Assembly: GCA_037140955.1 (NCBI GenBank)
Contig: JBAXDL010000003.1
Location: 27,348-91,347 of the forward strand
Origin: a bacterium
GTDB lineage: Bacteria; Patescibacteriota; Minisyncoccia; Moranbacterales; GWC2-37-73
Direction of reading: 5' to 3'
DNA length: 64,000 nucleotides
Shown here one piece after another: positions 5,214 through 41,857 of this stretch. A model generated the notes under the pieces. That model ran no database searches and had not been told where the DNA came from. It was given only the letters and a program-made list of their open reading frames with translations. The position numbers were made by a program, and so were the translations under genes. How positions within the stretch are numbered: position 1 is the stretch's first letter; the number at the start of each line of letters is the position of its first letter.

Positions 5214-6356
5214 CTACTTTTCCAATAATGCTTTTTCAATAAACTGACCAAATTCCCTTTGAAATCTTTCTCTTGAAAATTCTTCTCCTCTTTTTCTTAT
5301 CACATCTTTATCATAATTCCCCTCATTATTCAAAAATCTTCTCACGCCATCAGCCAAAACTTCGGGAGTTTGGGCATCAAAAAATTCCCCCGTAACACCC
5401 TCTTGCACGGTTTCCAGTGCGCCACCCTTGCGAAATGCAATCACAGGAACACCACACAGCATTGATTCTATTGGAGTTATTCCAAAATCATCCTCTGCTG
5501 CGAAAATAAAAGCCTTGGCTCCTTTGAAATATTGTTGAGTGACCTTGTCCGACTTCCATCCCAGAATCTTAATGTTGTCCTTGGCAATTTTTCTGAGGTG
5601 TTTTTCTTGTTTACCTGTTCCAATCACAACCAAGGGCAATCCCAATTTATTGAAAGACTCCACCACCAAATCAACTTTTTTGTAAGGAGAAAGACGTGAG
5701 ACAACCAGGAAATAGTCTTTGTCTGTCAATTCTTGGCTTTTGGTTTCTAAATCCACTTCTTGCCTCAGGCTAACTGGTGGATATATTACCGAAGAATCAC
5801 GCCTATAATATTTTGAAATTCTTTTTTGCGTATACGATGAATTTGCAATCAAGTGTTCCGGCCTTTGCGCTGCAAGATTGTCCCAGAGGCGCAAATAGTT
5901 GAAAAAGAAGCGCAAGAAAAAATTAGCTTTTGTTTTTCTATCTTCCTTCAAATATCTCTCATTATAATCCCAAACCCAACGCATTGGCGAATGCAAATAT
6001 GCCACATTCACCGTGTCCAATTTTGTCACAATCCCCTTGCTCCAAGCGCCAGAAGATGAAATGACCAAGTCAAATTCACGCAAATCAAATGTCTCAGGAA
6101 TAACAGGGAAAAAAGGCAACAGCCATTGCTGGTTTTTTCGCAAAATTTTTGGAAACTTCTGCAAATAAGACGCAACAATGTTTCTATCCTTAAAATAGGT
6201 TGATTTTATTTTTTCATCATACAAAATGGTATAAATCGGAGCATCTGGATACATCTTGGCAATTTCCAAAAGAACCCGCTCTGCACCACCAAAAACAGTG
6301 ACAAAATCATGCACAATGGCAACTTTTATTTTTTTTTCAGCAACATCTTCTTTCAT
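5214..6356 (-). CDS. Glycosyltransferase family 4 (GT-B, group 1).
   Basis: GGAERV motif near the N-terminus. The C-terminal half is of the E-x7-E type (GITPIESMLCGVPVIA). The start overlaps the stop of the upstream recombinase by 4 nt. Confidence 0.7.
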   Translation of the reverse strand: MKEDVAEKKIKVAIVHDFVTVFGGAERVLLEIAKMYPDAPIYTILYDEKIKSTYFKDRNIVASYLQKFPKILRKNQQWLLPFFPVIPETFDLREFDLVISSSGAWSKGIVTKLDTVNVAYLHSPMRWVWDYNERYLKEDRKTKANFFLRFFFNYLRLWDNLAAQRPEHLIANSSYTQKRISKYYRRDSSVIYPPVSLRQEVDLETKSQELTDKDYFLVVSRLSPYKKVDLVVESFNKLGLPLVVIGTGKQEKHLRKIAKDNIKILGWKSDKVTQQYFKGAKAFIFAAEDDFGITPIESMLCGVPVIAFRKGGALETVQEGVTGEFFDAQTPEVLADGVRRFLNNEGNYDKDVIRKRGEEFSRERFQREFGQFIEKALLEK

Positions 6357-7165
6357 AAAGGACTTTTTATGTTTCTTAGCATCGGATTCGTCACCTTGGT
6401 ATATATCTGTGTTGTCCTTATATTAGCATGACCAAGAAGTTCCTGTACATATCGAACATCAACACCATTTTCCAACAAATGTGTTGCAAAGGAATGCCTG
6501 AGCGAATGAAATGTGGCATCCTTTTGGATTCCAGCTTTTTGCAAGGCATTTTCAAAAACCTTTTGCGCCGTTCGTTCCGTGAGCTTTCCCTTGCGCTCAC
6601 TAGCAAAAACAAACTCATCAAGATCCTTGCCTGCAATCAGGCTTTGAATTTTTTCAACCAATTTTTCAGGAAGCACTGTGATTCGATCCTTGTTTCCTTT
6701 GGCTCCCTTGAGATGCATTGTCAATTCAGGCAAATCCAAATCCTTGACCTTCAAGTTTATGACCTCACTAACTCTCAGTCCCCCAGCATATGCAAGCGCA
6801 ATCATCAAATTGTGCTTTTGATTGATAATTTCATTCAAAATGACTTGAATTTCATCTCGCGAAAGCACAATTGGAAGCTTGCTGGCAGTTTTGGCAAAAT
6901 GCACATCAATTTTTCCTCTATATTTGAGCACATTCCAGCAGAAAAAATTAATCGCTTGCAGACTTTGATTTGTTGTCTGAGAAGAATATCCTTTGTCCAC
7001 TTTTGATAGGATGAATTTCTTGATAAAATCAACATCAACCTTTTCAAAATTATCCTTTTTTGCTTGCAAATACTCAGCCACACAGAAAGAATAACTCTTG
7101 ATAGTTTTTGGACTGTATTTTCTCAGTCGCAATTCATCTTGAAGTTTTTGCAAATAGACGTCCAT
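6353..7165 (-). CDS. xer: Tyrosine-type site-specific recombinase, XerC/XerD family (short, 270 aa).
   Basis: The C-terminal catalytic region is HSLRHSFATHLLENGVDVRYVQELLGHANIRTTQIYTKV (R..H..R..H...Y). It is translationally coupled (ATGA overlap) to the downstream GT4 gene. Confidence 0.85.
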   Translation of the reverse strand: MDVYLQKLQDELRLRKYSPKTIKSYSFCVAEYLQAKKDNFEKVDVDFIKKFILSKVDKGYSSQTTNQSLQAINFFCWNVLKYRGKIDVHFAKTASKLPIVLSRDEIQVILNEIINQKHNLMIALAYAGGLRVSEVINLKVKDLDLPELTMHLKGAKGNKDRITVLPEKLVEKIQSLIAGKDLDEFVFASERKGKLTERTAQKVFENALQKAGIQKDATFHSLRHSFATHLLENGVDVRYVQELLGHANIRTTQIYTKVTNPMLRNIKSPL

Positions 7166-7235
7166 TGATATTTATGCTAATATTGCCTTGTAAATAAATT
7201 ATACAAAATATTCGCAATAGATGCAAAATTTTGTA

Positions 7236-7262
7236 CAGTATGCGAAAACACTTCGCATACAA
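7236..7262. promoter_or_regulatory. dif-like palindrome: cagtatgcgaa-aacac-ttcgcatacaa (arms of about 11 bp, 5-nt spacer).
   Basis: The 9-bp arms are perfectly inverted (gtatgcgaa / ttcgcatac), extending to 11 with two mismatches. The site lies 70-95 bp upstream of the xer start and has the architecture of Xer recombination sites. Confidence 0.35.
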
Positions 7263-7311
7263 AAGAGTTGATCTGAAATGTCGCTCCACTACGTTTGCTC
7301 CATTTCAAATC

Positions 7312-7340
7312 AACGTGCGCGCCTGCCAGGCGCGCACGTT
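7312..7340. promoter_or_regulatory. 29-bp perfect GC-rich palindrome: aacgtgcgcgcctg-c-caggcgcgcacgtt.
   Basis: 14-bp arms with a 1-nt centre. It is the most GC-rich 30-mer in an AT-rich spacer, lies between the divergent xer and the 7417 gene, and is preceded by an overlapping 14-bp imperfect hairpin (7267-7314). Confidence 0.4.
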
Positions 7341-7416
7341 GTGCGAAATCTAGAATTTACATTTTATTTTGAAGGGCAAGAAAAATTATTTAATACGAGA
7401 ATATAATTTAACTTTT

Positions 7417-8070
7417 ATGAACACATATATTTATAAGAAATATGTAATTATTTTTGGATTTATTATTGGCTCCCTTCTTTTTATTATAGATCACCATTTG
7501 GAATATTTTTTGTACGGATTTATTATTGGCGCAATAATTTCTGTTGTTTATGTTTATACTTTTATTCCCAAGGCGGAATCTTCAGTTATAGTTTTTGATG
7601 ATGAAAAAATGATGCCCGGATCACCAATGCCATCAAAAATTTACATTTTAAGAGGGTTTTTTATAGGATTGCTTGTTTCTTTTATATTGATTCTGATTCC
7701 AGTTTTTATGCGCTCAATCCGTGACTTTAATCAAGCAAGAAAAGCTCATACGGATTATGTTTACGTAATTCAAAATTGCGGAAATAATCCAAGTGATAGT
7801 TGTCTCAGGAAATTGTGTTCTAATAATTACGATTGCGGGTTTGCTGTAATAAAAGATCCTCTTTCTTCTTTTGCATTAGAATATCATGATTATCGAGTTG
7901 AAAATGCTTCATATGCTTGGACGTTACTAATTCCAGATATCAGCGAGGGACTACAAGTATATTATATGTTTGGTTATTTGGGATTACTTGTCTTGCTATT
8001 ATTTTTAATCATTCCAGTATTATTAGGCTCGCTATTCGGTTTTATATATGGAAAATCGAAATACAAATAA
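7417..8070 (+). CDS. Hypothetical 4-TM membrane protein with a Cys-rich central loop. The start is uncertain: the ORF track uses TTG at 7369, and ATG 7417 is preferred here.
   Basis: Hydrophobic segments occur at both ends. The central loop reads NCGNNPSDSCLRKLCSNNYDCGF. A TATAAT lies at 7402-7407, 9 nt before the ATG. No recognisable family. Confidence 0.35.
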   Translation: MNTYIYKKYVIIFGFIIGSLLFIIDHHLEYFLYGFIIGAIISVVYVYTFIPKAESSVIVFDDEKMMPGSPMPSKIYILRGFFIGLLVSFILILIPVFMRSIRDFNQARKAHTDYVYVIQNCGNNPSDSCLRKLCSNNYDCGFAVIKDPLSSFALEYHDYRVENASYAWTLLIPDISEGLQVYYMFGYLGLLVLLLFLIIPVLLGSLFGFIYGKSKYK

Positions 8071-8330
8071 ATTTTCTTGCCCTTTATTTTTAATGAAAAT
8101 TCTCGACATCGTCCAACACGGCATATCTGGTTTCGCTACGCTACACCCAAATGCTTCGCACTTCAGATGGTGCCAATACGTTGATCTGAAATGTTCCCAA
8201 ATTAGGAACACTTCAATTTGCATTCATAAAAAATTCATTTGTCCACATATTGAATACAACTAAATTTCAACATTGATTCATATATGCAAAAGTGATCAAG
8301 AAATAATATTTGATATTTTTCATATTAAGA

Positions 8331-8359
8331 TTGCCCATTTTTTAATCTTTTGCTACAAT
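8331..8359 (+). promoter_or_regulatory. Near-consensus sigma70-type promoter: TTGCCC, 17 bp, TACAAT. The -10 ends 6 nt before the ATG, predicting a leaderless mntA-hepT transcript.
   Basis: ttgccc (8331-8336), a 17-nt spacer, tacaat (8354-8359), ATG at 8366. There is no SD. Confidence 0.4.
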
Positions 8360-8365
8360 ACAGCC

Positions 8366-8665
8366 ATGACTACATTAACTATCAAAAATCAAATAATCCC
8401 TATTTTAAAGCGCCAAGGAGTCCTTAAGGCGGCTATTTTTGGTTCTTTTGCAAGAGGTGAGGAAACAAAAAGAAGCGATGTTGATATTTTGGTAAAACTT
8501 GGCAAAAACAAGAGTTTGCTTGATCTTGTCGGGCTTAAGCTTGAATTGGAAGATAGTCTTGGTAGGGATGTCGATGTCGTTTCCTATGGAGGAATTAACC
8601 CACTCTTGAAAAATATAATTTTAAAAGAACAAAAAGTGATTTATGAAAGAAAAAAAAGATCCTAA
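8366..8665 (+). CDS. mntA: MntA-type minimal nucleotidyltransferase (antitoxin of a HepT/MntA TA pair).
   Basis: GSFARGEETKRSDVDILV (GS-x9-13-D-x-D nucleotidyltransferase motif). About 99 aa from ATG 8366. The track's 8273 start adds an unlikely 31-aa extension. Confidence 0.75.
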   Translation: MTTLTIKNQIIPILKRQGVLKAAIFGSFARGEETKRSDVDILVKLGKNKSLLDLVGLKLELEDSLGRDVDVVSYGGINPLLKNIILKEQKVIYERKKRS

Positions 8666-8987
8666 AATTTTTCTTACACATATTTTAAAAAGTATAGAGA
8701 GAATAGAAGATGATACGGCTGGTTTGTCTGAGGCTCAATTTTCAAGAGCACTAACCGTTCAAGATGCGGTTGTGCGTAGGCTGGAAATTATCGGTGAAGC
8801 TGTAAGAAATATTGCAGATGATTTTAGAAAAAAGCATACTAAAATCCCTTGGAAGAAAATGGCAGGATTGCGTGATGTTTTGATTCATGAATATTTTGGT
8901 GTCGACATGGAACTTGTTTGGAAAATTATTAACAATGATATTCCAAAATTGAAAAAACAAATTTTGAAAATAGTTGAAAAACTTTAG
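8643..8987 (+). CDS. hepT: HepT-type toxin (DUF86, HEPN family).
   Basis: R-x4-HxY motif (RDVLIHEYF). 114 aa. It overlaps the mntA stop by 23 nt. Confidence 0.7.
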   Translation: MKEKKDPKIFLTHILKSIERIEDDTAGLSEAQFSRALTVQDAVVRRLEIIGEAVRNIADDFRKKHTKIPWKKMAGLRDVLIHEYFGVDMELVWKIINNDIPKLKKQILKIVEKL

Positions 8988-41653: not shown

Positions 41654-41663
41654 ATTAAATAGG

Positions 41664-41737
41664 TGGGCTTATCAAGATTCGAACTTGAGACCTCGTCATT
41701 ATCAGTGACGCGCTCTAACCAGCTGAGCTATAAGCCC
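41664..41737 (-). tRNA. tRNA-Ile (anticodon GAT).
   Basis: The reverse complement gggcttatagctcagctggttagagcgcgtcactgataatgacgaggtctcaagttcgaatcttgataagccca folds as a canonical cloverleaf. Anticodon loop ctGATaa. 74 nt, CCA not encoded. Confidence 0.9.
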
Positions 41738-41784
41738 ATAAAATTTGCAAAAACTGCGTGATAAGCGCAGTAAATTCTATGTTG

Positions 41785-41857
41785 TGGACCGGACAGGACT
41801 TGAACCCGCTACCTCCTCAGTGCAAATGAGGCGCTCTACCAGGTGAGCTACCGGCCC
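41785..41857 (-). tRNA. tRNA-Ala (anticodon TGC) with a G3:U70 identity pair.
   Basis: The reverse complement gggccggtagctcacctggtagagcgcctcatttgcactgaggaggtagcgggttcaagtcctgtccggtcca. Anticodon loop ttTGCac. Acceptor gggccgg/ccggtcc with G3-U70. Confidence 0.9.

Follow-up and report, generated by a model that had tools for sequence, protein, structure and literature searches.

A probable integron-like gene-capture platform beside a XerA/IntI-like recombinase gene in Patescibacteria

Chromosome dimers in archaea are resolved by the recombinase XerA at a single double-stranded dif site, and XerA is not known to be associated with cassette arrays. In streptococci, the difSL site lies directly beside the gene for its single recombinase, XerS. 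CTX phage integrates a folded single-stranded hairpin site via the host Xer, and the pdif modules of Acinetobacter are small gene modules, often encoding toxin-antitoxin pairs or membrane proteins, located between inverted recombinase sites. Integron integrases carry an additional domain around patch III, which has been named as integron-defining and is considered a requirement for recombination in integrons (PMC9668308, citing Messier and Roy 2001). Here we describe a tyrosine recombinase gene, xer, and the DNA upstream of it in a 64,000-nucleotide stretch of a genome from the Patescibacteria (contig JBAXDL010000003.1 of assembly GCA_037140955.1, positions 27,348 to 91,347; hereafter the window, in which all coordinates are given). 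The segment from 7238 to ~8224 is probably the proximal end of an integron-like gene-capture platform. Comparison with relatives showed the architecture of the array, its polarity relative to xer and the covariation of a folded recombination-site candidate, as well as complementarity between the two ends of each unit, diverse cargo with conserved ends, and replacement of the array at the junction between close relatives.

A first-pass annotation of the window had drawn attention to a 15-bp direct repeat bracketing a small gene beside xer, and had proposed a possible Xer-linked or integron-like cassette. We found a discrete cassette tied to xer with integron-like features, and the part of the proposal that invoked an element exploiting Xer was weakened, as set out below. 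Relatives were collected by a scan of one genome per GTDB species, which yielded 80 Patescibacteria loci with Xer proteins 46-83% identical. The junction regular expression and the covariance model used below were built from the same loci on which they were counted. A set of 17 metagenome contigs, retrieved via the conserved attI-like core next to xer alone, was kept apart and is partly independent, as some of these contigs duplicate GTDB genomes. The taxonomy labels of the metagenome-assembled genomes (MAGs) are unreliable.

The relatives carry arrays of units upstream of the attI-like site, joined by the motif ATTTCnnnnYAAC↓GTnnnnnTATnnGAAGT (the arrow marks the junction). Matches to this motif in the 80 loci numbered 129 on the xer strand upstream of xer, one downstream, and four on the opposite strand. 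The junctions delimit 66 intervals of two classes, gene-less units of 160-190 nt and units of 0.5-2.7 kb that usually contain one open reading frame (ORF). Most ORFs are directed away from xer (14,687 aa, compared with 2,993 aa in the opposite direction). The gene cassette of the window shares the layout of these 66 units, with one ORF directed away from xer and then a folded site downstream of the ORF. The cargo proteins are almost all mutually unrelated, and include NUDIX, RibD_C/DHFR, GNAT, APH, HIT and HD proteins, transporters, methyltransferases and an IS200-type transposase, while the non-coding ends of the units are 75-94% identical as DNA across genomes. The transposase, of the Y1 type (PF01797, 5.5e-35), is carried by one cassette (cargo set A3); enzymes of this type act on single-stranded hairpin DNA.

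On the xer strand, a conserved element opens each unit. It comprises a covarying stem, P1 (for example GGCATATCCG/CGGATATGCC or GCTTGTATCAG/CTGATACAAGC), two hairpins, PA and PB, linked by conserved GAAGTT, AATTTGGG and (G)AACC joints, and an inner arm, GTTnnnnGATGT, that pairs with an end box to form a further helix, P0. In an alignment of 13 hand-picked sites, one of which was the window site at 8104-8192, 94% of cells were paired, compared with 75% in shuffles and ~40% with slid partners, and compensatory changes were present in 20 of the 32 pairs. In the model-fitted alignment 92.9% of cells were paired and 26/32 pairs were compensatory. The covariance model seeded with the 13 sites (R1) gave a single strong match in the 64 kb, at 8104-8192 on the minus strand, with a score (59.5 bits, E 1.8e-11) that is partly circular because the window site was in the seed. 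Across the 80 loci R1 gave 100 matches at E <= 0.01, all of them on the xer strand and upstream of xer. The metagenome contigs gave 32 more, at most six per array, and all had the expected strand and side. The window site is 94% identical to the site of locus L058, 89% to that of L020 and 86% to that of L008, and the latter two adjoin cargo unrelated to that of the window. G·T pairs outnumber A·C pairs by 315 to 72. This excess slightly favours the xer-sense strand, antisense to the cargo, as the one that folds. Two of the G·T pairs are invariant and, together with a fixed TG/AA mismatch, could act as extrahelical bases. No Rfam family for the folded site was found, either at the gathering threshold across the window or at E <= 1 in 7100-8400 and in the array of a complete genome (L014); these searches returned only two tRNAs and chance-level matches.

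The two ends of a unit are related to each other. The inner arm matched the far end box of its own unit at a mean of 4.65 of 6 positions, compared with 3.06 for the neighbouring box and a random level of 3.07. Of the 49 units, 35 matched their own end better and 5 matched the neighbour better (Wilcoxon p = 1.6e-6). In most units the inner arm fits its own far end box at 6/6 variable positions, and its match to the box it actually abuts is at the random level. The complementarity of unit ends has a median length of 55 nt and extends up to 140 nt, with z > 4 in 31/45 units. By analogy with the R'/R'' logic of integron sites, an own-end match is the relation that would be expected if units circularise or fold back with a crossover at AAC↓GT.

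This property explains the long inverted repeat around the ORF of the window. A repeat search found 20 nt at 95% identity tightly around the ORF (7372-7391 and 8065-8084), and the pairing continues to ~54 nt (7338-7391 and 8065-8117) with a score of 27, compared with 10.6 in shuffles (z 7.7). Inverted repeats set so closely around a putative surface or membrane protein gene, beside a tyrosine recombinase gene, would also suit a phase-variable switch in which the recombinase flips the gene on and off at the repeats. We rejected this explanation as highly improbable. All 100 + 32 folded sites have one orientation relative to xer and the ORFs mostly do likewise, the inverted form was seen in none of the 97 loci, and the repeats are accounted for by end complementarity, a general cassette feature present in 31 of 45 unrelated cassettes.

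The xer-proximal boundary of the arrays is itself conserved. About 110 nt upstream of xer are kept as DNA among the relatives, reading ATTTCnnnnYAAC↓TCGTTTATATGCGAAGTGTTTTCGTATA along the xer strand ahead of a TATAAT promoter, and the AAC↓TCGTTTATATGCGAAGTGTTTTCGTATA consensus is retained in nearly all closer relatives. In the window, this DNA corresponds to the first 15-mer of the direct repeat together with a palindrome at 7238-7260, whose 9-bp arms surround a 5-nt centre. In nearly all relatives the conserved core borders the first junction, in the interval between xer and the array. Between non-syntenic loci, DNA homology starts at the attI-like point (-114) and does not continue past the stop codon of xer. 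Of the 80 contigs, 28 break off at most 420 nt upstream of xer, several of them at AAC↓TCG, and none breaks off within that distance downstream. A cassette platform at this point would explain such a recurrent assembly break in the MAGs. From these observations we infer that the attI-like site is the entry point for cassettes. Inspection of the window for promoters revealed no convincing plus-strand promoter between xer and the first ORF that could correspond to the cassette promoter Pc of integrons. In a group of more distant loci (L036-L084, xer 55-68% identical), AAC↓TCGTTTATATGCGAA is retained ~130 nt upstream of xer, and the inverted arm gives way to a second, direct copy of TATGCGAA ~40 nt further on. 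These direct copies recall the direct-repeat accessory sites of attI1.

The Xer protein comprises 270 aa. Its best match among the NCBIfam models is XerA_Arch (NF040815, 'site-specific tyrosine recombinase/integron integrase'), with 216.6 bits against an equivalog cut-off of 220. The integron integrase model TIGR02249 matches in two stretches with 211 bits (cut-off 265), and the scores for XerD (182, cut-off 329.6), XerC (177, cut-off 335) and XerS (71, cut-off 267) are lower. Compared with solved structures, the protein scores 148 and 141 bits to XerA (5hxy and 4a8e), 139 to Vibrio IntI4 and 93 to XerD. By these scores, the recombinase is about equally close to IntI4 and to archaeal XerA, and far from XerD. 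Residues 6-182 and 238-317 of IntI4 (2a3v) align to Xer, and residues 183-237 face only 12 query residues, indicating that the IntI-specific additional domain is absent from the recombinase. The first-pass annotation had observed that xer is shorter than integron integrases and that it is coupled to the downstream GT4 gene and looks chromosomal. The absence of the IntI-specific insertion, the 4-nt overlap between xer and the GT4 gene, and conserved synteny bear out both statements, which argue against a canonical integron but not against an integron-like mechanism.

Properties of the recombinase and of its neighbouring palindrome also speak for a different explanation, in which xer is a housekeeping dimer resolvase, the palindrome is its dif site, and the cassettes are parasites that integrate at dif in the manner of integrative mobile elements exploiting Xer (IMEX). 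The score of the protein almost reaches the XerA cut-off, xer lies at one syntenic chromosomal locus among cell-division genes, and the site is directly beside the gene, as for XerS and difSL. The palindrome arms covary in closer relatives (TATACGAA/TTCGTATA and TATCCGAA/TTCGGATA). In addition, a 'Cand' subgroup of tyrosine recombinases has been treated as Xer-related proteins of candidate phyla (PMC8138268). We nevertheless consider this explanation unlikely. A dif site is expected once per replicon, at the terminus, with two inverted arms around a centre of 6-8 bp. GC skew is negative across all 64 kb with no switch at the locus, on which ground a terminus dif was rejected here. In the group with 55-68% identical xer the palindrome is lost and direct TATGCGAA repeats stand in place of the inverted arm. 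Two single MAGs each possess two separate xer/attI-like platforms, UBA4824 (L039, L043) and H52-bin056 (L044, L084), and arrays in which as many as 6 single-gene units have one orientation and a common folded site are unlike the IMEX pattern. The locus does not behave as a single terminus dif, although the recombinase may have a second role in dimer resolution. In UBA4824, one platform occupies the syntenic locus between the genes GT4b and GT4a and the other lies elsewhere, with four junction-motif sites.

The synteny comparison between the two flanking GT4 genes that the first-pass annotation had suggested revealed turnover at the locus. In the window's lineage the order mreB-GT4b, variable region, xer-GT4a-holB-ftsQ is conserved, with a variable region of 1.07-4.3 kb that has no fixed gene order. 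Four pairs of relatives with flanks 90-96% identical lose all homology at the attI-like junction (L058/L062, L019/L020, L076/L077 and L052/L082), and in L058 and L062 it resumes further out, at 1.9 and 3.1 kb. Two other loci (L005 and L015) have a NUDIX cassette in common and different cassettes between it and xer. In L074 (6001-9016) and L021, xer is followed on the same strand by mreB and GT4b instead of GT4a-holB-ftsQ, which suggests a chromosomal rearrangement with its breakpoint at the platform.

The turnover also bears on the proposal that nothing at the locus is mobile, the elements being structured non-coding RNAs, terminators or REP-like (repetitive extragenic palindromic) repeats between accessory genes, with the 15-mer repeat incidental. 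Strong covariation and conserved joining nucleotides do resemble a structured RNA, the folded strand could be RNA or DNA, and a recombination product was not observed. However, the elements lie on one strand and upstream of xer only, folding is favoured on the strand antisense to the cargo genes, and the two ends of a unit match each other across its cargo. Given in addition that homology between close relatives breaks at the junction and that no Rfam family matches, we regard an immobile locus as quite improbable.

The anatomy of the window can be read in the light of these arrays (Table 1). Both exact copies of the 15-mer GTTGATCTGAAATGT reported by the first-pass annotation are present on the plus strand, at 7267-7281 and 8180-8194, and there is a third, inverted copy with 2 mismatches at 7300-7314. 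Matches with up to 2 mismatches (<=2) thus number 3, compared with 0.40 expected from shuffles. The earlier caution about chance was fair, since 64 kb of sequence should contain an exact 15-mer pair somewhere; a separation of only 913 bp beside a recombinase gene is not expected. The two copies had been taken as the ends of one element. Instead, they are the starting boxes of two mini-cassette copies, one intact (7267-7337) and one decayed (8180-8224), and a further junction at 7337/7338 (junction 2) delimits the gene cassette proper, 7338-8179. The motif CTTCGCA, previously suggested as a recombinase half-site, does occur 9 and 19 nt before the 15-mers (7251-7257 and 8154-8160). We rejected the half-site role, as the motif is at chance frequency in the window (5 copies, 5.6 expected) and its distal copy at 8154 forms a small hairpin within the folded site; the copy at 7251 alone falls in the attI-like core.

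The mini-cassette of the window, which overlaps a perfect 31-nt GC palindrome at 7311-7341, folds strongly as single-stranded DNA (z -5.4 and -6.5 compared with shuffles). Homologous units of 160-190 nt adjoin the attI-like site in four other loci (L013, L014, L019 and L063). One of these, in the complete genome CP011209 (Candidatus Wolfebacteria; L014, 3717-5900), has three 100% identical gene-less units of ~175-190 nt flanking two gene cassettes, and the order of mini-unit, gene cassette, mini-unit and attI-like site seen in the window is present there too. The gene-less units of this genome consist of a long GC-rich stem and a short hairpin, and alternate with gene cassettes upstream of xer; in one of the cassettes the gene lies within the P1 stem, not the P0 stem. 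The decayed segment at 8180-8224 is a remnant of either another mini-cassette copy or the original left half of the attI-like site. Two Logan contigs of SRR7053542 (L001, L002) abut with a 1-nt gap at 7297 (7296-7298), in the hairpin loop of the mini-cassette. We did not accept this break as structural evidence, as it amounts to a single nucleotide in a hairpin loop and is probably a population variant or a drop in coverage. No tRNA gene that could serve as an integration target was found near the locus.

Taken together, a mechanism can be proposed for the platform. The XerA/IntI-like recombinase would act at the attI-like site just upstream of its own promoter, and cassettes would be inserted or excised at a crossover ...YAAC↓GT.... 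Read along the xer strand, a cassette has the four-helix site first, followed by the inner arm GTTnnnnGATGT, a cargo gene directed away from xer and lastly the end box ATTTCnnnnYAAC. Complementarity between the inner arm and the end box within one cassette often spans 50-100 nt. In a circular or single-stranded form, these ends would pair into a stem enclosing the folded site and so restore a full recombination site, in a manner like R'/R''. The strand presumed to fold as single-stranded DNA is the xer-sense strand. For the window, the predicted circle would join 8179 to 7338 and read GGTGCCAATAC↓GTTGTGCGAAAT on the plus strand.

Several observations weigh against this interpretation. No recombination product (circle, empty site or alternative junction) was observed for the window's own lineage, and an exact search for the distal junction of the window in JGI metagenomes returned nothing. 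Taken alone, the folded site of the window is thermodynamically unremarkable and folds no better than shuffled sequence (z = 0.0), so that the structural argument is a comparative one, drawn from many genomes. As the regular expression and the covariance model derive from the loci in which they were counted, the counts are in part circular. The wobble asymmetry is moderate once the two invariant G·T pairs are set aside (123 G·T compared with 72 A·C), in an alignment that was itself fitted to the model. The strict motifs of the integron R''/R' boxes, RYYYAAC and GTTRRRY, are present at 20/85 and 21/61 sites respectively, with AAC and GTT invariant. Repeated gene-less units do not fit a simple model of insertion one at a time. 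Finally, both the alignment to IntI4 and the TIGR02249 score place Xer outside the integrases with the integron-defining domain. We therefore do not classify the system as an integron, though it seemingly works like one.

Table 1. Coordinates of the platform, its recombinase gene and adjacent features in the window
Feature	Position	Strand	Details and evidence
Tyrosine recombinase gene xer, XerA/IntI-like	6353..7165	-	Pfam Phage_integrase 5.8e-44; NCBIfam; alignment to IntI4
xer promoter-like site	7198..7227	-	TTTGCA, 18 nt, TATAAT; 10/12 consensus positions; region kept as DNA in relatives
attI-like core	7238..7266	-	Abuts junction 1 (7266/7267); xer strand TCTTTTGTATGCGAAGTGTTTTCGCATAC
Gene-less mini-cassette	7267..7337	-	End box 7267-7281 (first 15-mer), loop, inner arm 7300-7314, GC palindrome 7315-7337
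Gene cassette with orphan protein of four transmembrane segments (4-TM)	7338..8179	+	Bounded by junctions 7337/7338 and 8179/8180; junction motifs
Left terminal inverted repeat	7338..7391		End box 7338-7349 = ATTTCGCACAAC on xer strand
Cargo ORF, 217 aa	7417..8070	+	Four hydrophobic segments; four Cys in loop between segments 3 and 4
Right terminal inverted repeat	8065..8117		Inner arm 8106-8117 = GTTGGACGATGT on xer strand
attC-like folded site, predicted helices P0, P1, PA, PB	8104..8192	-	Includes neighbouring end box 8180-8192
Second 15-mer and decayed hairpin	8180..8224	-	Weak hairpin 8192-8210
MntA/HepT toxin-antitoxin pair	8366..8987	+	MntA 8366-8665, HepT 8643-8987; Pfam

The cargo protein of the window matches no Pfam or NCBIfam family, and its four hydrophobic segments agree with the earlier description as a 4-TM protein. 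Its sole homologue, P0002 (L003 1987-2457), is 38% identical over the C-terminal half and lies in a different context. The two proteins have in common the motif VIQNCGNNPSDxCLxxLC and the last transmembrane segment; P0002 is without the first three segments, is located outside a cassette context and has no covariance-model match. As this distant protein is the only relative, the cargo offers no comparative evidence. The coding part of the cassette (7400-8100) has a GC content of 0.24-0.34, compared with 0.35-0.43 for xer, which is consistent with a foreign origin.

Beyond the platform, Pfam supported the earlier assignments of the MntA/HepT pair and of both flanking genes as GT4 glycosyltransferases. 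MntA/HepT has its own promoter-like site (8331-8359), and neither a junction motif nor a model match was detected between HepT and GT4b, so that the pair cannot be called a cassette. At 41662-41857, on the minus strand, genes for tRNA-Ile(GAT) and tRNA-Ala(TGC) lie side by side, a pair usual in the rRNA spacer; Rfam reported no rRNA anywhere in the 64-kb window.

It is about as likely as not that Patescibacteria carry a widespread, undescribed counterpart of integrons, in which a compact XerA/IntI-like recombinase without the IntI domain captures single-gene cassettes via a branched four-helix site, with long complementary ends placing the cargo in a fold-back loop. Such a counterpart could have arisen independently of integrons, or be related to them as a sister or ancestral form. 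We found no published report of integrons or cassette arrays for this group, the candidate phyla radiation (CPR) or Patescibacteria, in the full-text literature, including the papers on archaeal integrons and IntegronFinder 2.0, though coverage was incomplete and an earlier description is possible. A cassette platform without the IntI domain and with a differently built site bears on the origin of integrons from Xer-like enzymes, and on which features structure-specific recombination really needs. It also offers a concrete mechanism for accessory-gene flux in the tiny genomes of symbiotic CPR bacteria and, if the wider proposal is true, the counterpart could be a main route of gene gain in reduced Patescibacteria genomes. 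The covariance model and the junction motif provide a means to find such arrays, and the recombinase and its sites can be tested as a new compact recombination system.

Among known systems, archaeal XerA is the best sequence match to the recombinase, with the same size and domain layout and no insertion; here the score is just under the equivalog cut-off and the gene lies beside an array. IMEX such as CTX phage are phages or islands at the terminus dif, not single-gene arrays with a structured site, and there is no skew switch at this locus. The pdif modules of Acinetobacter are likewise small gene modules bracketed by inverted recombinase sites, but those are 28-bp XerC/XerD sites on plasmids, with no adjacent dedicated recombinase, polar array or folded site. 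The closest likeness is to chromosomal 'sedentary' integrons (Vibrio cholerae superintegron, IntIA/IntI4, VCR attC), which also have a recombinase gene divergent from co-oriented, mostly single-ORF cassettes, with an attI-like site between them. As in integrons, the crossover is placed at an invariant AAC/GTT, an imperfect palindromic folded site is located downstream of each ORF, each cassette begins with bases complementary to those that open its own site, and sites within one genome can be near-identical. The diverse, mostly small accessory cargo (NUDIX, GNAT, DHFR, APH) and the differences in proximal cassettes between close relatives are also shared, and the favoured xer-sense folding strand is antisense to the cargo, as is the integron bottom strand. 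Unlike in integrons, the host belongs to the Patescibacteria, gene-less units of 160-190 nt recur, and the recombinase, although it scores 139 bits to IntI4, is without the additional domain (IntI4 residues 183-237). The sites are also built differently: an integron attC is a single imperfect R/L-box hairpin of 57-141 nt with extrahelical bases, whereas the predicted fold here is a branched structure of four helices with GAAGTT, AATTTGGG and AACC joints, and complementarity between the ends of a cassette spans 50-140 nt, compared with ~7 nt in integron cassettes.

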